The notes: a model not told the origin generated them from the letters alone. A stretch of DNA of 64,000 nt from Gemmatimonadota bacterium (GCA_039589315.1 JBDHHQ010000021.1:32001-96000), one strand, 5' to 3'. Counted from the first letter of the stretch, positions 540 to 16,734 are shown. Made by a program: numbers and translations.

Positions 540-1469
540 TCAGGTCGTGCTCGCGACCCTTCGACCGAGACGGATGGCCAGCAAGAGCAGCAGCGGAGTC
601 TGGATCACGACGGCTCCGATGGGGATCGCGGCCGTTTCCACCCTACCCAACAAGGTCCCGCCAACGAAGATCGCGAGGCCTCCGTTCCGGAGGCTGAAGT
701 CGAGAGCCAGCGTGAAACGGTCTTCGTCGTTGAGACCGAGCACGGTGGCCGTGCCGTATCCGAGGGCCAGGGTCACGATGGCGAACAGGAGCACCAGTGA
801 AGAAACCCACAGCGCGTCGGCCATCAACGCGTCGAGAACCCGGTACCCGACCAGGATCGCCACCAACAGGATGCCCACCACACTCCCCTTTCGGACGATC
901 GGCATCGCCCGGGCGGCCGCTACCGGCCACACAAGCCGCACGCCCATCCCGACGGCCAGCGGCACGATCATGGTGGCGAAGGTCTGGACCAGCATGGGTA
1001 GGATCGGCGTGCTGACCTCAGCGGCCTGACCCAGTCCGAGCCTCAAGCTCGTCGCGAGCAGCATCGGCAAGAGGAATGGCAGGGCCAGATTGCCGATCGC
1101 CGTGAGTGTGACCGAAAGCGGGGTATTCGCCCGCGCCAGATCCACGAGGAAGTTGACCATCGCAGCTGGAGGGCACACTGCAAGGATGATCAACCCCGCT
1201 GCCAGGTAAGGGGGGGGATCGAGGAGGATGGCGAGGCCCACGGCCACGAGCGGAAGCAGGACGAGCTGAACCGCCGTTGCCATGAACACGACGCGTGGGA
1301 ATCGTGCCACGCGCCCGAAGTCCTCAGGTGCCAGGCTCAGCCCCACCACGGTCATGATGTAGACCACGACTGCGGGAACGACGACCTGAATGACCAGATC
1401 CATGGGCGCATAGTCTGGCGTCCCGGACATCACCGAGCCAGGCCCGCTGTCATGCGACGGCCCGTGCAC
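540..1469 (-). CDS. bile acid:sodium symporter (BASS) family transporter
   Basis: Multi-TM protein with M..VGLSL...DF, QLVLLPL, CPPAAMVN and RNGGLA motifs; start uncertain. Confidence 0.85.
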   Translation of the reverse strand: MHGPSHDSGPGSVMSGTPDYAPMDLVIQVVVPAVVVYIMTVVGLSLAPEDFGRVARFPRVVFMATAVQLVLLPLVAVGLAILLDPPPYLAAGLIILAVCPPAAMVNFLVDLARANTPLSVTLTAIGNLALPFLLPMLLATSLRLGLGQAAEVSTPILPMLVQTFATMIVPLAVGMGVRLVWPVAAARAMPIVRKGSVVGILLVAILVGYRVLDALMADALWVSSLVLLFAIVTLALGYGTATVLGLNDEDRFTLALDFSLRNGGLAIFVGGTLLGRVETAAIPIGAVVIQTPLLLLLAIRLGRRVASTT

Positions 1470-2543: not shown

Positions 2544-3311
2544 ATGATCGAGAGTCTGATTCAGCAAGCATCGTCGTACGCGGCGTCCATCGACGGGATC
2601 ATCCTGTTGATCGCCGTGCTGGTGGGGTTCTGGTTCATCCTGGCAGAGGGCGTCTTCTTCTGGCTGATCCTGAAGTTCCGGGCCAAGCCCGGGCAGAAGA
2701 GCGACTACATCACCGGCAAGGAGAAGCATCTCAAGCGGTGGATCACGATTCCCCACGCGCTGGTGCTGCTGTGCGACGTCTTCATCGTCATAGGCGCAGT
2801 CCGGGTCTGGCATGAGGTCAAGCTCCAGCTGCCCGAACCCGACGCGACTGTCAGGGTCATCGGCCAGCAGTGGGCGTGGGTGTTCCAGCACCCAGGCCCC
2901 GACAACGAGTTGGACACCGGCGACGACATCTTCACGACCGACGAGCTGCACGTTCAGAACGATCGGACGTACCACTTCCAGCTCCAGTCGCGAGACGTGG
3001 TCCACAGCTTCTCGGTGCCGGTCTTCCGCCTCAAGCAGGACGCGGTCCCGGGCCGGACCATCACCGGTTGGTTCCGTCCTACGCAGACGGGTGAGTTCGA
3101 CATCCAGTGCGCCGAGATCTGTGGAATCGGCCACGGCGTTATGGGGGCCCGGATCCACATCGAGAGTGAGAGCGAACACGCCACCTGGATGGCGCTGAAC
3201 AGCCCTGGGGACGGCACCGGCTTGGCACTAGCCGGCCCGGTGGATGCCCCGGCACTCGCTCCGGCAGCGGACCACGACAGCCACGACCACAGTCCGTCGA
3301 ACACCCAGTAG
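2544..3311 (+). CDS. coxB: cytochrome c oxidase subunit II (CuA)
   Basis: Two TM helices, GQQWAW, DVVHSF and the CuA motif CAEICGIGHGVM; His-rich tail. Confidence 0.95.
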   Translation: MIESLIQQASSYAASIDGIILLIAVLVGFWFILAEGVFFWLILKFRAKPGQKSDYITGKEKHLKRWITIPHALVLLCDVFIVIGAVRVWHEVKLQLPEPDATVRVIGQQWAWVFQHPGPDNELDTGDDIFTTDELHVQNDRTYHFQLQSRDVVHSFSVPVFRLKQDAVPGRTITGWFRPTQTGEFDIQCAEICGIGHGVMGARIHIESESEHATWMALNSPGDGTGLALAGPVDAPALAPAADHDSHDHSPSNTQ

Positions 3312-3329: not shown

Positions 3330-5039
3330 ATGGCTCAGGCCGCCACGATTGCCGAGGGTGCCGAGCACCACGCTCACGAGCACCACGGTCCCCAGGGGAT
3401 CCTGAAGTACATCTGGTCCACCGACCACAAGATCATCGCCATGCAGTATCTCTTTACGGGGATGTTCATGGGTGTGATCGGTGGTCTGATGGCGTACGTG
3501 TTCCGTATGCAGCTGGCTTTCCCGGGTGTCTCGGTCCCCGGCTTCGGCGTGGTCTCGCCCGGTGAGTACAACGCACTCGTGACGAACCACGGGTCCATCA
3601 TGATCTTCTGGGTGGCGATGCCCGTATTGATCGCCGCCTTCGGGAACTTCCTGATCCCCCTGATGATCGGGGCGGACGACATGGTGTTCCCCAGGATCAA
3701 CCGGCTGTCGTTTCAGATCTTCTTCCTGAGCGCCGTCCTGATCCTTCTCTCGCTGGTGGTGGAGGGTGGCGGCTTTGGGGGCGCCTGGACGGCGTATCCG
3801 CCGCTTTCAGCCAATTCGGCCTACAACCTGACCAAGCTGGGCGCGACGCTCTGGCTCCTGGCCGTGGCGCTCGAGTTCGTGGCTTTCCTGCTGGGCGGCA
3901 TCAACTTCATCACGACGTTGATGAACTCCCGAGCCCCCGGGATGAAGGCCTACGACATCCCGCTGGTCTGCTGGATGATCGTGATCGCCAGCATCATCTT
4001 CATGCTGTCGGTGGGCCCGCTCATCGCAGGCGCGGTGATGCTGCTCTTCGATCAGGTGATCGGTACCGGCTTCTACGACCCGACCCGAGGCGGGGACCCG
4101 ATCCTCTGGCAGCACCTCTTCTGGTTCTTCGGCCACCCCGAGGTGTACGTTGTGTTGCTGCCGGCCATCGGCATCGTGATCGACGTCGTGGCCACCTTCG
4201 CCCGCAAGAAGGTGTTCGGCTACAAGATCATGCTCTACACGGCGGTAGCCACCGGCGTGTTGAGCTTCTTCGTCTGGGCGCACCACCAGTTCGTCGCCGG
4301 GATCGACCCCCGGATGGCGAACATCTTTACGGTCACGACGCTGCTGATCTCGGTGCCCATCGCCGAGTTGTGCTTCGTAATCATCGCGACGCTGTATCGA
4401 GGGTCGATTACGCTCAATACGCCCATGCTCTGGGCACTCTCGTTCATCGCAGAGTTTCTGATCGGCGGTGTCACGGGGATCTTCCTGGGAGCCAGCGGCT
4501 CGGATATCTACCTGCACGACACGTACTTCGTGTTGGCGCACTTCCACTACACGTTCTTCCCCATCGCCATCATCGGGGCATTCGCCGCGCTGACGTACTG
4601 GTTCCCGAAGATGTTCGGGCGGATGATGAACGACACTCTCGGGAAGATCCACTTCTGGGGAACGATCATCCCGTTCAACTTCATCTTCATTCCGCTGTTC
4701 GTGCTCGGGTTGGGTGGTCAGCACCGCCGGATCTACAACTTCCAGAATTTCTCCGAGCTGGCGGCCATGCAGCCCTACCGGGTCCTGGCCACGGTGTCGT
4801 TGATCGTCATGCTCCTCTTCCAGCTGGTCTTCTTCTACAACTTCTTCCGGAGCATGCGGAAGGGAGAGGCGGCAGGCAGGAACCCGTGGAAGGCAAACAC
4901 CCTGGAGTGGACGGCGGAATCGCCGCCGCCCCACGGCAACTGGCCCCGTGACGAGATGCCCCGCGTCTACCGCGGTCCCTACGAGTACGGGCACCCGGAC
5001 CGTGAAGAAGACTACTGGCCCCAGAACCTTCCTGCCTGA
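3330..5039 (+). CDS. coxA: heme-copper oxidase subunit I (A-family-like, atypical proton channels)
   Basis: STDHK, TNHG, DMVFPRIN, WTAYPPL, FWFFGHPEVY, WAHH, LHDTYFVLAHFHY and HRRIY motifs. Confidence 0.97.
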   Translation: MAQAATIAEGAEHHAHEHHGPQGILKYIWSTDHKIIAMQYLFTGMFMGVIGGLMAYVFRMQLAFPGVSVPGFGVVSPGEYNALVTNHGSIMIFWVAMPVLIAAFGNFLIPLMIGADDMVFPRINRLSFQIFFLSAVLILLSLVVEGGGFGGAWTAYPPLSANSAYNLTKLGATLWLLAVALEFVAFLLGGINFITTLMNSRAPGMKAYDIPLVCWMIVIASIIFMLSVGPLIAGAVMLLFDQVIGTGFYDPTRGGDPILWQHLFWFFGHPEVYVVLLPAIGIVIDVVATFARKKVFGYKIMLYTAVATGVLSFFVWAHHQFVAGIDPRMANIFTVTTLLISVPIAELCFVIIATLYRGSITLNTPMLWALSFIAEFLIGGVTGIFLGASGSDIYLHDTYFVLAHFHYTFFPIAIIGAFAALTYWFPKMFGRMMNDTLGKIHFWGTIIPFNFIFIPLFVLGLGGQHRRIYNFQNFSELAAMQPYRVLATVSLIVMLLFQLVFFYNFFRSMRKGEAAGRNPWKANTLEWTAESPPPHGNWPRDEMPRVYRGPYEYGHPDREEDYWPQNLPA

Positions 5040-5050
5040 GGTCCGATCAA

Positions 5051-5623
5051 TTGGATAAGCCCATCGCGACCACGCGCTACGCTACCGGGATCCCCACCGG
5101 CCGTCTGGCTGTCTGGTGGGTTCTCGCCTCCGAGGTCGTCATCTTCGGGGGCCTGCTGGCGTCCTATCTCATGTTCCGGCTCGGTCATCCGGAGTGGGCC
5201 GACGCCGCGGCGCACACCAACACGTGGATCGGCGCATTCAACACCTTCGTCCTGCTTACGTCGAGCTTCACCGCGGTCCTGGCCCACCAAGCCGCGGAGA
5301 AGGGCGACGGGCAGCTGGCGGCCAAGTACCTGGGGTTCACCATCATCGGTGCGGCCACCTTCATCGGCGTGAAGAGCTTCGAGTGGTACTCGGAGATCAC
5401 CCACGGCTATACCATCACGGCGAACGGATTCTGGAGCTTCTACTACACGGCGGCGGGGCTGCACGCGGCCCACGTGATCGCAGGCGCCGTCATCATGGCG
5501 TTCGTCGCGAGGGACGCGGCGCAGAACAAGGAGCTCCACCGGGTGGAGCTGATCGGAATCTATTGGCACTTCGTGGACGTCGTCTGGATCTTCCTGTTCC
5601 CCCTGCTCTACATCGCGAAGTAG
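5051..5623 (+). CDS. coxC: heme-copper oxidase subunit III (short form)
   Basis: SEVVIFGG, NTFVLLTSSFT, GLHAAHV and YWHFVDVVW motifs; TTG start after GAGG. Confidence 0.9.
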   Translation: MDKPIATTRYATGIPTGRLAVWWVLASEVVIFGGLLASYLMFRLGHPEWADAAAHTNTWIGAFNTFVLLTSSFTAVLAHQAAEKGDGQLAAKYLGFTIIGAATFIGVKSFEWYSEITHGYTITANGFWSFYYTAAGLHAAHVIAGAVIMAFVARDAAQNKELHRVELIGIYWHFVDVVWIFLFPLLYIAK

Positions 5624-5630
5624 GTACGAC

Positions 5631-6374
5631 ATGTCGGATCAATCCGGGCACGACATCAACTACAAGAAGATCTATTACACGCTGCTGATCCTGCTGGTGA
5701 TCAGCGTAGCGGGCCCGTTCTTGGGGATCTTCTGGGTCACGCTCATCACGGCCTTCGGGATCGCCTTGGTAAAGGCCAACCTGGTCGTCCAGAACTTCAT
5801 GCACCTGAAGACCGAGCGGCAAATCATGAAGTGGTTGCTGGCCGGGTCTCTCGTGCTCATGTTCCTGCTGTTCGCCGGTGTCGCCGCGGACGTGATGAAG
5901 CACGAAGGCGCCAATTGGGAGAACACGGCTGCCAAGGCCGCCGTGGCCCGGGGAATCCCGGACGCCGACCACGCCGAGGAGTCGGGTGAGGAGCACGGCG
6001 AGGGGTCCGGTGAGGAATCGGGTGCCGAGGCGGGGGCGCCGGAGGGTGGGGCCGCTGTGGCGGTCGCTGGGGCGGCCGAAGCCGCCGCGTTCGACGCCGA
6101 GGGCGCCTTCCAGGCGGTGTGCGCCACCTGCCATGGCTTGACGGGCGGCGGCGACGGGCCGGGTTCGGCGGCCCTGGAGCCCAAGCCCGCGGCCTTCGAC
6201 GACCGGGCCTTCTGGGAGACGCGCACCGAGGCCGACATGGTGACGGTCATCCTGCAGGGCGGTGCGGCGATCGGTAAGTCGCCCCTGATGCCCCCCTGGA
6301 ACGCGCTCTACGACCAGGCAAAGGCCGAGGCCCTGGTTGCCTACATCCGGGAGACCTTCGCGCCCGCCAGCTGA
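5631..6374 (+). CDS. cytochrome c oxidase subunit IV (CtaF-like) fused to a C-terminal cytochrome c
   Basis: N-terminal 3-TM domain with KANLVVQNFMHLK.E; acidic Gly/Ala linker; CATCH heme motif and SPLMPPW distal Met. Confidence 0.88.
   Translation: MSDQSGHDINYKKIYYTLLILLVISVAGPFLGIFWVTLITAFGIALVKANLVVQNFMHLKTERQIMKWLLAGSLVLMFLLFAGVAADVMKHEGANWENTAAKAAVARGIPDADHAEESGEEHGEGSGEESGAEAGAPEGGAAVAVAGAAEAAAFDAEGAFQAVCATCHGLTGGGDGPGSAALEPKPAAFDDRAFWETRTEADMVTVILQGGAAIGKSPLMPPWNALYDQAKAEALVAYIRETFAPAS
5976..6023 (+). repeat. 4 x 12-nt imperfect tandem repeat encoding the EESG/EEHG/EGSG/EESG linker
   Basis: gaggagtcgggt gaggagcacggc gaggggtccggt gaggaatcgggt. Confidence 0.7.
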
Positions 6375-6407: not shown

Positions 6408-7001
6408 ATGGAAGCCTCGACCTTGACGTTGGCGCGCCGCGAGCCGCAGCCGTCACCCCAGCTGCTTGCGAGCAGCGTGCTGGGCATGCTGCTGTTCGTA
6501 TTCACGGAGATCATGCTCTTCTCCGGCTTGATCTCGGCCCACGTCATCTTCCTGTCGGGCCGGGTGGGCGAAATCTGGCCGCCTCCCGGACAGCCTCGTC
6601 TGCCGTTCCAGGAGACGGCCCTGAACACGACGGCGCTTCTGGTGAGCGGCGTGGTCTTGCTCATTGCCCGGCTGGCGTACGCCAAGAGCCCGCGCCGGGC
6701 TCTCGTTCCCATGGCGATCTCGGTTCTGCTCGGCGCATTCTTCGTCGCCGCCCAGGGTGCGGAGTGGCTGGACCTGATCCGCGAGGGGCTCACGATGACG
6801 TCGAGCACGTACGGGGCCTTCTTCTACCTGATCGTGGGCACTCACGCGGTACACGCGGTGGCCGCCATCTTCGGTCTGGCGTGGGCTTGGCTGCGACTGC
6901 GAACAGGCGAGCTCAACAGCGCCCACTTCGACACGGTCCAGATCTTCTGGTATTTTGTGGTGCTCGTGTGGCCGGTGATCTACTTCCAGGTGTACGTGTG
7001 A
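6408..7001 (+). CDS. second subunit III-family protein (CoxP/NorE-like)
   Basis: TEIMLFSGL, NTTALLVSG, QGAEW, GTHAVH and FWYFVVLVW motifs. Confidence 0.88.
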   Translation: MEASTLTLARREPQPSPQLLASSVLGMLLFVFTEIMLFSGLISAHVIFLSGRVGEIWPPPGQPRLPFQETALNTTALLVSGVVLLIARLAYAKSPRRALVPMAISVLLGAFFVAAQGAEWLDLIREGLTMTSSTYGAFFYLIVGTHAVHAVAAIFGLAWAWLRLRTGELNSAHFDTVQIFWYFVVLVWPVIYFQVYV

Positions 7002-7231
7002 TGGCTCATCGCTGGATCCCCATGCTGGTGCTGGTGCTCCTGGTCGCTCTGCCCGAGGCGATCTTCGCCTGTCCCGTCTGCTTCGACGCGAGCGCCGAGA
7101 ACCGCGTAGCGTTTCTGAAGACCGCCATCGCTCTGTCGGTCCTGCCATTGGGACTGGTGGGAGGGACAGGCCTGTGGCTACGCAAGCGGTGGCGGGAGCT
7201 GTCCGGCGAGTCGGACGAAGATCTGGGCTGA
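7001..7231 (+). CDS. small membrane protein with signal peptide and CPVC motif
   Basis: TGATG overlap with the upstream stop; MAHRW...AIFA-CPVCF, then one TM helix and a basic stop-transfer segment. Confidence 0.75.
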   Translation: MAHRWIPMLVLVLLVALPEAIFACPVCFDASAENRVAFLKTAIALSVLPLGLVGGTGLWLRKRWRELSGESDEDLG

Positions 7232-7407: not shown

Positions 7408-7956
7408 CTAGGCCGGGGTGCCGCTCAAGTCCGCTACGTCGTTCCCCGCGTTGGCGCTCTCCCCCTGCTCCGCCTCGGCAGAGAGATGGGCTCTCCGGAG
7501 GAACGCCGTCATGGCTGTGGCCGTGAGCGCGTTGGCGACCAGGATGCTGCCCGCCCCGATCCGCCCGGCCACTCCTGGCATGATTACGCTGGCGCTCATC
7601 AGGAATCCGGCGGAGGAGAGCACGAAGAGCGCGCCGGCGGAGGCCGAGAAGGAAGTGGCGCGCGCCTCGACGAAACGGACGACCCAGGAGGCCAAGAGGC
7701 CCAGTATCATGAACGCGAGGATGTGGACGATCGTGGTCAGCGCCACCGCGTCGAGCCGGACCGCGCTCACGGCATCTGCGGCCTCGCCGAAGAACAGCAC
7801 GCTGCCCACCAGTGAGGGCGTGAAGAGCGGTTGCCCACCGATCGTGTCGAGCACCAGGAAGAAGAGCGCGACGACGGCCCCGCCAATGGCACCGGAGTAG
7901 AACGACTCGTACAGGACATCGGCCATCGTGGGCGGGCGGTGGTTCTCGTGCGTCAT
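7408..7956 (-). CDS. hypothetical integral membrane protein
   Basis: About 5 hydrophobic helices; D..GGQPLFTP, H and N within helices; RBS GGAGAGG before MTHEN. Confidence 0.75.
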   Translation of the reverse strand: MTHENHRPPTMADVLYESFYSGAIGGAVVALFFLVLDTIGGQPLFTPSLVGSVLFFGEAADAVSAVRLDAVALTTIVHILAFMILGLLASWVVRFVEARATSFSASAGALFVLSSAGFLMSASVIMPGVAGRIGAGSILVANALTATAMTAFLRRAHLSAEAEQGESANAGNDVADLSGTPA

Positions 7957-8236
7957 CGGACCTCTCCCTCCGGGCAACCAGGAGCCCGGACCTGCCGTAG
8001 TAGGCTCTACTCCCCCGAAAGCGTGAGCCTCTGGCGGAGTTCCGTGCGGAATGGCATCGATCGACCCGGGGGAGGGGAGACCCGGGACGGTCGCGCCGAG
8101 GTCCGCTGTGGGAATAAAGGCAACAGTAGGGCCTTCGCGCCCCCTTGGCGAGGGGCCCGGGGGCGGTGGTGCGTCGGTGGGCCCGATTGCCCGGCGGGTA
8201 CCCGGTGCCGACCGCTGCCGAGGGCGCCCTCGAGGC

Positions 8237-15480: not shown

Positions 15481-16734
15481 ATGGAGGTCTTTCACGTCGT
15501 TGCGGCCCTCATGGCGCTGGCCGCCGTCTTCGCCTGGCTCAACCACCGCTACCTGAAGCTGCCGACCACGATCGGACTGCTGGTCATCTCCATGGTCTTC
15601 TCCCTGGCGATGGTTCTGCTCGGCGCGGCGGGGGTTCGCTTCCAGGGACTGCGCGACCTGCTCCTGGCGGTCGACTTCGACCAGGCGCTGCTCCACGGCA
15701 TGCTGGGAGCGCTACTGTTTGCCGGGGCGCTGCACGTCAACCTGGACGACCTGGCCGAGCAGAAGTGGGTGGTCCTACTGCTCGCCACCGTCGGCGTAAT
15801 CACGTCCACGGCGCTGGTGGGCCTGGGAACGTGGTGGCTGCTCGACGCCCTCGGCGTCGGGTTGCCCCTCGTCTTTTGCCTGCTGTTGGGCGCGTTGATC
15901 TCACCGACCGATCCCATCGCGGTGGGGGCGATTCTCCGAAACCTCGGCGCACCGCGGCGCCTCATGACCACAATCACCGGCGAGTCCCTGTTCAACGACG
16001 GGATCGGGGTGGTGCTGTTCCTCGTGCTCCTGGGGATCGCCACCGGTGGCCACGGGAGCGACGCGACGGCAGCGGGAGTGCTTCAGCTCCTCGTGGTGGA
16101 AGTGGGCGGTGGCGTCGTCTGGGGTGCGTTGCTGGGTCTCGTGGCGTACGGAATGCTGAAGAGCGTGGACAACTACCAGGTGGAGATCATGGTCACACTC
16201 GCCCTGGTGACCGCCGGCTACGCCATGGCCGACCGACTCCACATCTCCGGCCCCCTGGCCATGGTCGTGGCAGGGCTGCTGATCGGGAACCACGGTCGCC
16301 GATTCGCCATGTCCGAGCGCACCCAGGAGCGCCTGGACGGATTCTGGGAGCTGGTGGATGAGCTCCTTAACGCGCTCCTGTTCGTGATGATCGGCGTCGA
16401 GGTGCTCGTGCTCGCGTTCTCCATCCCTGCGGTCATCGCGGGGGTCGCCATGATCCCGCTGACCCTGGCCGCTCGCTGGATCGCCGTGAGCATCCCGCTC
16501 ACCGCCCTTCGGGGACGCCACGGCCTCCCGCGGCGGGCGGCCGAGATCCTGACCTGGGCGGGCCTCAGGGGCGGGATCTCGGTGGCACTGGCACTCTCCC
16601 TCCCGGCTGGTCCCGAGCGGGACCTGACGCTCACGATCACCTACATCGTGGTGGCGTTCTCCATTGTCGCTCAGGGGCTGACCGTAGAGGCTGTAGTACG
16701 GCGGTTGGTGGAGGATCCGCCGGCTGAAGGGTAA
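15481..16734 (+). CDS. nhaP: Na+/H+ antiporter (CPA1/NhaP family)
   Basis: SPTDPIAV, GESLFNDG and WAGLRGGISVALALSLP motifs. Confidence 0.92.
   Translation: MEVFHVVAALMALAAVFAWLNHRYLKLPTTIGLLVISMVFSLAMVLLGAAGVRFQGLRDLLLAVDFDQALLHGMLGALLFAGALHVNLDDLAEQKWVVLLLATVGVITSTALVGLGTWWLLDALGVGLPLVFCLLLGALISPTDPIAVGAILRNLGAPRRLMTTITGESLFNDGIGVVLFLVLLGIATGGHGSDATAAGVLQLLVVEVGGGVVWGALLGLVAYGMLKSVDNYQVEIMVTLALVTAGYAMADRLHISGPLAMVVAGLLIGNHGRRFAMSERTQERLDGFWELVDELLNALLFVMIGVEVLVLAFSIPAVIAGVAMIPLTLAARWIAVSIPLTALRGRHGLPRRAAEILTWAGLRGGISVALALSLPAGPERDLTLTITYIVVAFSIVAQGLTVEAVVRRLVEDPPAEG

Follow-up and report, generated by a model that had tools for sequence, protein, structure and literature searches.

The window, meaning the whole stretch of DNA analysed here (64,000 nucleotides of a Gemmatimonadota bacterium, GCA_039589315.1 JBDHHQ010000021.1:32001-96000), carries on its plus strand a compact cluster of heme-copper oxidase genes in the order di-heme cytochrome c, subunit II, subunit I, subunit III, subunit IV-cytochrome c, subunit III and a small ORF. 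The first gene (1685-2323) encodes a cytochrome c with two CxxCH motifs (PF00034), the probable electron donor, and a homologue of it adjoins subunit II in 49 of 66 loci of the core clade described below, many loci being too short upstream. Subunit II (2544-3311) was identified by PF00116, TIGR02866, alignment and a CuA-type C-x-E-x-C motif; its start falls at GTG 2499 according to the ORF finder and at ATG 2544 according to the beginnings of its homologues. It is followed by subunit I, of 569 amino acids (3330-5039), by a first subunit III-like gene (5051-5623, PF00510), by a caa3-type subunit IV fused to a mono-heme cytochrome c (5631-6374; TIGR02229 above cut-off, PF03626 and PF00034) and by a second subunit III-like copy (6408-7001, PF00510). 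The last member, a membrane ORF of 76 amino acids with a CPVC motif (7001-7231), overlaps the stop of the second subunit III copy and has no family match; it recurs 3' of the operon in loci L001, L002, L008 and L010. Gaps between genes from subunit II onward measure -1 to 33 bases, and a scan for promoters and terminators returned one promoter-like site against 0.9 expected.

Genes of other kinds flank the operon. On its 5' side lies a gene of the bile acid:Na+ symporter family (540-1469, minus strand), and ca. 8 kb to its 3' side a Na+/H+ exchanger gene (15481-16734, plus strand). A membrane protein of 189 amino acids (7408-7977, minus strand) belongs to an unnamed Gemmatimonadota family (Atlas cosine 0.95) with three paralogues in the genome, one of them directly after the oxidase on contig C27. 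A tie between this gene and loss of the K-channel lysine was considered and rejected, its homologues within the loci adjoining lysine-bearing oxidases only.

Subunit I was aligned to chain 1m56_A of the R. sphaeroides (Rs) enzyme, with a numbering offset of +15. All six histidine ligands (H87, H269, H318, H319, H404 and H406) and the cross-link tyrosine (Y273) are intact. The available parts of the cited sources define the A1 class by the motif XGHPEVY (PMC8361435) and describe the canonical channel residues and their roles (PMC8361435, PMC8239185), with further background in PMC5492636 and bioRxiv 2022.04.13.488242. The A1 motif GHPEVY, with E271, lies at 4131-4148, and the CuA-bearing subunit II expected of A1 oxidases is present. 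The AlphaFold model of subunit I has a mean pLDDT of 87.9, and its best Foldseek matches are A-family oxidases (TM 0.85-0.91, ca. 38% identity). Membership of the C-family is contradicted by these A-family matches together with the CuA subunit II, and assignment to the nitric oxide reductases, which in the text available are marked by absence of the cross-link tyrosine (PMC11214002), by the presence of Y273 in 240 of 240 homologues.

The K-channel is erased. In subunit I, K362, T359, S299 and S365 of the Rs enzyme are replaced by L347, I344, I284 and V350, so that the helix VIII segment at 4359-4379 reads I344 (T359), E346 (I361), L347 (K362) and V350 (S365), with a new glutamate on the opposite face; in subunit II the entry glutamate (Rs E101) is replaced by Leu63 (2730-2732), as seen in the codon and in the alignment to 1m56_B. 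Since the canonical A1 K-channel is missing, the enzyme is filed as an A1-derived variant and not as a canonical member. Equivalents of D132, N121, N139, N207 and E286 of the D-channel are kept (D132 in 240/240 homologues, N207 in 239/240), but the segment S197/S200/S201 has become E/A/F. This remodelled upper D-channel corresponds to E182..A185-F186 in helix IV (S197E, S200A and S201F; 3873-3887). The initial annotation had described both aspects correctly: its motifs FGNF, DMVFPRIN and GGIN, read as retained D-channel residues, are all present, and the serine pair that it reported as changed to Ala/Phe is aligned with A185/F186.

Spread of the clade and the oxidases of its genomes

Across the aligned loci, the pattern of E182, E346 and E375 is the signature of a multi-phylum clade of putative A1-derived oxidases that lack the lysine. 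Record titles of clade loci include Gemmatimonadota, Myxococcota, Bdellovibrionaceae, Puniceicoccaceae, Eisenbacteria and Binataceae, and protein names add SAR324. One record, L011, is titled a Klebsiella pneumoniae MAG and carries the clade operon, whose other occurrences are in unrelated phyla; it is possibly a mislabelled bin. Among Gemmatimonadota, a match of at least 77% identity occurs in 27 of 301 genomes (a count that includes G157 in the denominator only), all in the family of the query (26 of 47 relatives, plus the query genome G000).

In 12 of the 26 clade-bearing relatives no PF00115 match other than this enzyme occurs, a figure made up of 5/5 genomes chosen as apparently single and 7/21 others. 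Where second matches occur they are high-scoring only in G279 (377 bits), the others reaching 195-210 bits and, in G285, 63 bits; the query genome's own match, at 203 bits, is without the tyrosine. No bd oxidase was found in the five genomes tested, which are 97-99% complete. Matches to CtaA and CtaB are present in 39 of 39 genomes, consistent with heme A. Replacement of heme a3 by heme b3, with a vacated farnesyl groove, was also considered and is weakened by the occurrence of both enzymes in all 39, sole-oxidase genomes included. A non-functional paralogue is rejected by conservation and sole-oxidase status. Taken with CtaA/CtaB, the same two lines of evidence make it very likely that this A1-derived enzyme functions as an O2 reductase with heme A.

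The query genome holds further heme-copper subunits. A second K-less A1-type oxidase of a separate lineage (G000:C27:75647-77482, locus L082) has no glutamate in helix IV, VIII or IX, and carries Thr at 356 and a Glu in TM2 of subunit II. The genome's lysine-bearing A1 subunit I (G000:C43:99737-101648, L083/L085) is split over two frames at a short direct repeat, by an assembly error or as a pseudogene, with c-type cytochromes and a bd-like gene as neighbours. A fourth subunit I (G000:C6:114744-116102, L084), adjacent to a CuA subunit, has H-S-S-Q-Q-I-N in place of the His-Tyr motif, which we take to resemble eNOR; matches scoring like it were found in 13 of 26 relatives.

Lysine loss, the three glutamates and Thr408

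The residues that accompany loss of the lysine were tabulated for 188 of 191 loci, those covering the sites, of which 98 have the lysine and 90 do not; the set is not random, its loci having been collected for their similarity to the query and to L018. The K-less loci fall into a core clade (65 loci: E182 in 65, E346 in 62, E375 in 56), an outer group (11 loci: Glu or Asp at 182 in all 11, E346 and E375 in none) and 14 others with none of the three glutamates. Ser or Thr at Rs position 356 is found in 89/90 K-less and 0/98 K-bearing loci, the sole exception, L021, being without both this residue and the TM2 acid described below.

On trees of 91/188 rows and of 47 rows, with diagnostic columns masked, the state of the lysine changes five times, and a quick mixture-model tree again gave five changes. 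Ser/Thr356 follows the loss in four of five independent pairs (p 0.125, five such pairs being unable to reach p 0.05), and in a pair test on 137 of 150 cluster representatives ca. 2.3 of 4 pairs agree with this and no pair opposes it (p 0.5). Among 147 representatives it occurs in 31/40 whose residue 362 is none of K/Q/H/E/R/N, archaeal proteins included, in 4/18 with Gln or His362 and in 1/89 with Lys362; of the 18 with Gln/His362, 13 keep Ala356. One separate K-less group (P0154, P0178, P0185 and related proteins) has Gln or His at 362 and in most cases Ala356, several of its members with Glu at the N207 position. The link between Ser/Thr356 and lysine loss, as read from these alignments, is strong in counts and not statistically established across lineages.

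The glutamates behave differently from what the initial annotation's idea of co-conservation with K-channel loss would suggest. E182 follows one of the five independent losses, and E346 and E375 follow none; with representatives the values are 0.6, 0.1 and 0.1 of 4 pairs, and among 49 K-less representatives E182 occurs in 3 and E346 and E375 in 1 each. A role as general partners of K-loss was rejected on these figures.

Within the clade they are firmly kept. Their GAG codons, in the ORF at 3330-5039 (+), are located at 3873-3875 (E182), 4365-4367 (E346) and 4452-4454 (E375), with mean hydropathies of 2.15, 2.27 and 1.74 in the surrounding windows, and with T408 they lie inside the model helices 169-199, 327-355, 364-387 and 399-429, so that codons, hydropathy and model bear out the placement of the glutamates in hydrophobic helices first proposed from the sequence. 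Likewise, the threonine noted to follow HFHY is found in HFHYT at 4539-4553; it opens the segment T408-F-F-P411 in helix X (Rs V423..L426, 4551-4562), remodelled just after the heme ligands. The Rs equivalents are S197 for E182, I361 for E346, L390 for E375 and V423 for T408.

A set of 120 close homologues, at 82-100% identity and with the cluster of the query counted in, has E182, E346 and T408 in all 120 and E375 in 111; the glutamates are therefore neither chance nor sequencing errors. A second set of 120 (67-79% identity) has E375 in 114. The conservation anticipated for the glutamates thus holds over both sets (n=240), with E182 in 240, E346 in 216, E375 in 225, T408 in 240 and Lys362 in none. 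The 24 homologues without E346 are the top matches of one lineage, that of L009. E375, in helix IX, is the least conserved of the three among close homologues and core loci, being replaced repeatedly by Thr, Ala or Ser (15/240 homologues; three changes on the 47-row tree). At least one acid at 346 or 375 is kept in all 240 homologues and in 66 core loci.

Glu or Asp at 182 is present in 76/76 clade loci, by definition, versus 0/98 K-bearing loci. Thr423 and a polar residue at 390 are not as novel as the initial annotation suggested, being found in 5 and 15, respectively, of 76 lysine-bearing 50%-cluster representatives (at 390, T9, Q3, N2 and E1). On ideal helical wheels E182 lies on the S201/G204 face of helix IV, which is that of the D-channel, and E375 on the S371/T382 face of helix IX. 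E346 adjoins the K362 position, occupied by Leu347; the wheel, which ignores the Pro343 kink, sets it 100 degrees off 362 and 160-180 degrees off the T359/T352 face. As a direct substitute for K362 it was rejected, since it occupies 361 on the wheel face opposite T359/T352.

A proposed proton entry at the interface of subunits I and II

TM2 of subunit II is four residues longer than TM2 of 1m56_B. It holds His71 (Pro+1, 2754-2756), the proposed partner of E346, and Asp78 (Pro+8, 2775-2777), an acid shared by K-less lineages and invariant in alignment A4; both are in the predicted interface with subunit I. Histidine at Pro+1 is found in 60/61 core loci versus 0/21 other K-less loci and co-occurs with E346 in 57 of 58. 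The three core loci without E346 have instead a glutamate at Pro-2 of TM2 and, forming one lineage, count as one event; L009, titled Puniceicoccaceae bacterium K14 with no MAG label, has this Glu-swapped form. Neither E346 nor His71 is needed for living without K362, to judge from the aligned sequences, because the outer members and three other K-less lineages lack both. An acid at Pro+8 is far more general, with Asp or Glu in 81 of 82 K-less loci with an aligned subunit II. Of 87 K-bearing subunits II, 80 offered a TM2 anchor that could be used, and a TM2 acid was flagged in three of these, two of them mis-anchored and one at the helix end. Ser341 of helix VIII (Rs A356, 4350-4352), the site at which Ser/Thr accompanies lysine loss, is also in the predicted interface.

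This interface comes from a predicted complex of subunit I residues 25-512 with the subunit II hairpin 5-97, which scored 0.64 against 0.00 for the best of three controls; 116/157 solved pairs attain the mark for this score, as do 2/215 mismatched ones. At least 88% of contacts are shared between runs, and the partner pLDDT is at least 68. The pairing of subunits I and II is a textbook one, and solved structures remembered by the predictor may account for the pass; only the residue list is used. It contains 341-342, 345-346, 373-374 and 377-378 of subunit I and 70-71, 74-75 and 78 of subunit II, and omits 375, 182 and 408, absence from the list being uncertain. The pairs E346-H71 and S341-D78 are absent from the 25 best-ranked contact pairs of the predicted complex.

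Given the wheel faces and this list, which includes E346 and not 375, 182 or 408, the three glutamates are most simply assigned to three separate places. E346 and E375, at similar depth, may border one cavity, a possibility kept alive by the constant retention of one acid or the other. The single site once envisaged from Glu(VIII), Glu(IX) and Thr(X) does not agree with a prediction that puts E346 at the I/II boundary without E375, T408 or E182. That E346 faces another subunit in the predicted complex, an outcome named in advance as adverse to a glutamate pathway, does speak against a heme-side site, and it points to a new path. The notion of a rewired ion pathway survives in this changed form, as a proposed route along the I/II interface, and not as an ion site beside the heme.

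The explanation we put first, tentatively and at slightly less than an even chance, is an H+-coupled oxidase in which the K-channel has been replaced by an interface route E346-His71(II)-Asp78(II)-Ser341-Tyr273. The residue changes are observed, Ser341 and Asp78(II) having been gained across K-less lineages and E346 and His71(II) in a sub-clade; the interface position is predicted, and transfer of protons along it is what we infer. With the K proton channel lost, a substitute would have been built between helix VIII of subunit I and the lengthened TM2 of subunit II. The two protons of the reductive phase would pass from the cytoplasmic side to E346/His71(II) and on to Asp78(II), and from there through Ser341, in T359's stead, to the cross-linked Tyr273 and heme a3. 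The stretch of subunit II from His71 to Asp78 is hydrophobic, and the proposed route would need water there. Pumping would still use the D-channel, with E182 as an extra protonatable relay offsetting S200A/S201F, E375 and T408 would be secondary, polar substitutions on the side of helices IX and X, and the coupling ion would be H+.

Alternatively, all eight protons could enter by the remodelled D-channel, with E182 as a new relay, and the interface acid and Ser341 would replace the electrostatics and hydrogen bonding of K362/T359 without conduction. The retained equivalents of D132, N121, N139, N207 and E286 and the standing of E182 as the most conserved of the three glutamates agree with this proposal, and Degli Esposti et al. 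(bioRxiv 2020.03.01.968255), in the part of the preprint available, read their K-less COX as retaining the D-channel only. Nevertheless, position 182 is never acidic in three other K-less lineages (0/14), yet 12 of their 13 aligned subunits II have a TM2 acid, and the account would give no reason for the E346/His71 pair or for its swap; on balance we regard it as somewhat unlikely.

A further option concerns the depth of Asp78, which lies in the C-terminal, periplasmic half of TM2. Chemical protons could enter from that side through Asp78(II), with charge separation partly given up and E346/His71 serving as a structural ion pair. A second Asp at Pro+12, present in 8/8 outer-clade loci and 4/13 other K-less loci, would suit such an entry, but it occurs in 0/61 core loci, this gene included, H71 and E346 were gained on the inner side, and sole-oxidase status would argue against lost efficiency. 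Periplasmic entry is thus improbable for this enzyme. The glutamates could also have nothing to do with ion transfer and be changes particular to their lineages that serve packing, lipid binding or regulation: K-loss preceded both E346 and E375, each of which is dispensable in some lineages, and position 390 tolerates polar residues in K-bearing enzymes. Buried acids kept across several phyla, and a glutamate swapped from subunit I to subunit II, would nonetheless seem costly for mere packing, which leaves this option with little probability.

With regard to sodium, a helix IX glutamate of cbb3 oxidases has been implicated in Na+ pumping in an alkaliphile enzyme, and E-S with a helix-1 Gln is part of the Na+ motif of c-rings. 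The initial annotation had drawn on the former to suggest Na+ coupling, which in our assessment is very unlikely, whether as a Na+-translocating oxidase or as a Na+ site formed from E346, E375 and T408. E375 does share a wheel face with the cbb3 position (20 degrees), at least one acid at 346/375 is kept in the 240 homologues and 66 core loci, the query genome has NqrA and the Na+/H+ exchanger gene at 15481-16734, and a Na+-motive cbb3 exists, as far as the available text of PMC8874543 goes. However, in an hhalign profile comparison with five CcoN sequences (probability 97.3) the cbb3 glutamate E323 (3mk7) falls on the invariant T382, seven residues or two turns from E375, with a 3-residue gap in the alignment between the two sites, so that the proposed analogy fails in position though not in wheel face. 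Also contrary are the repeated replacement of E375 by T/A/S, the orientation of E346 towards subunit II in the predicted complex and the intact proton D-channel. The genomic indicators are mostly negative. NqrA is above cut-off in 5/56 genomes, that is, in only 5/44 clade-bearing ones (own included; 1/27 in the own family) and 0/12 controls, and of 30 c-subunit loci 28 are readable, with 17 E-G, 3 E-A and 8 E-S, seven of the last with the helix-1 Gln; all 13 own-family c-rings, and the query genome's, are E-G without Gln. The NqrA gene of the query genome (G000:C1:154867-156237) is the only one above cut-off among 39 own-family genomes tested.

Returning to the interface route, a broader and doubtful generalisation would be that A-family oxidases have repeatedly exchanged the K-channel for a TM2 carboxylate in a lengthened subunit II helix, together with Ser/Thr356 beside the catalytic Tyr, and that in this clade the arrangement was re-plumbed from a periplasm-facing Asp-Asp ladder, as in the outer members, to a cytoplasm-facing Glu346-His71 relay. 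If true, heme-copper oxidases would have a third way of taking up protons, one that runs between subunits.

Comparison with known oxidases

It is an old question why, in A-family oxidases, two of the eight protons require a K-channel of their own, and nearly all work on it has used lysine mutants that are almost inactive. The clade offers a natural case of oxidases that do without this lysine, frequently as the only heme-copper oxidase of the genome, and it points to candidate residues, S341, D78(II), E346/H71(II) and E182, which are also candidate suppressors for lysine mutants of R. sphaeroides or P. denitrificans. In the literature covered, in which subscription journals are thinly represented and preprint supplements may list the clade, nothing was found on its glutamates, the E346-His71 pair, the subunit II His/Asp, the Ser/Thr356 link or sole-oxidase status, nor, with the same thin coverage of subscription journals, on S197D, cbb3 K-channel residues or exit-side proton access.

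K-less A-family oxidases are already published, and the putative replacement residues of this clade are the new part, within the literature covered. According to the accessible portions of the reports, K-less COX of the A2 type occurs in acidophilic Fe(II) oxidisers and in Thioclava (bioRxiv 10.1101/2020.03.01.968255; PMC8239418), K-less COX is described in Ferrigenium (bioRxiv 10.64898/2026.01.22.701106), and Gemmatimonadetes have COX gene clusters in which COX3 is duplicated and other cytochromes c occur (bioRxiv 2020.03.01.968255). The Fe(II)-oxidiser enzymes share with the present one a hydrophobic residue at K354/K362, loss of subunit II E78/E101 and a kept D-channel. They are described as A2 and deep-branching, whereas this enzyme has the A1 motif with E271 and groups among lysine-bearing A1 enzymes, on trees that are without the Fe(II)-oxidiser K-less sequences. 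The accessible portion of that account describes no replacement residues; its figures S10 and S11a may list the clade.

With the cbb3 oxidases of the C-family (3MK7; the Na+-motive Thioalkalivibrio enzyme in the available text of PMC8874543) there is distant homology, and helix IX carries an acid on the matching face. Unlike them, this enzyme has a CuA subunit II and a D-channel and is without CcoO/CcoP, though several clade members, A-type as they are, are labelled 'cbb3-type subunit I' in databases. The closest comparison is with the canonical A1 aa3 enzymes (R. sphaeroides 1M56/2GSM, P. denitrificans 1AR1), with which it has in common the fold, the six histidines, the cross-link tyrosine, GHPEVY, the CuA subunit II and D132/N121/N139/N207/E286. 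It differs from them by K362L, T359I, S299I, S365V and E101(II)L in the K-channel, by S197E/S200A/S201F, A356S, I361E, L390E, V423T and a proline at 426 in subunit I, by a TM2(II) four residues longer with its His and Asp, and by two copies of subunit III, the subunit IV-cytochrome c fusion and the di-heme cytochrome c.
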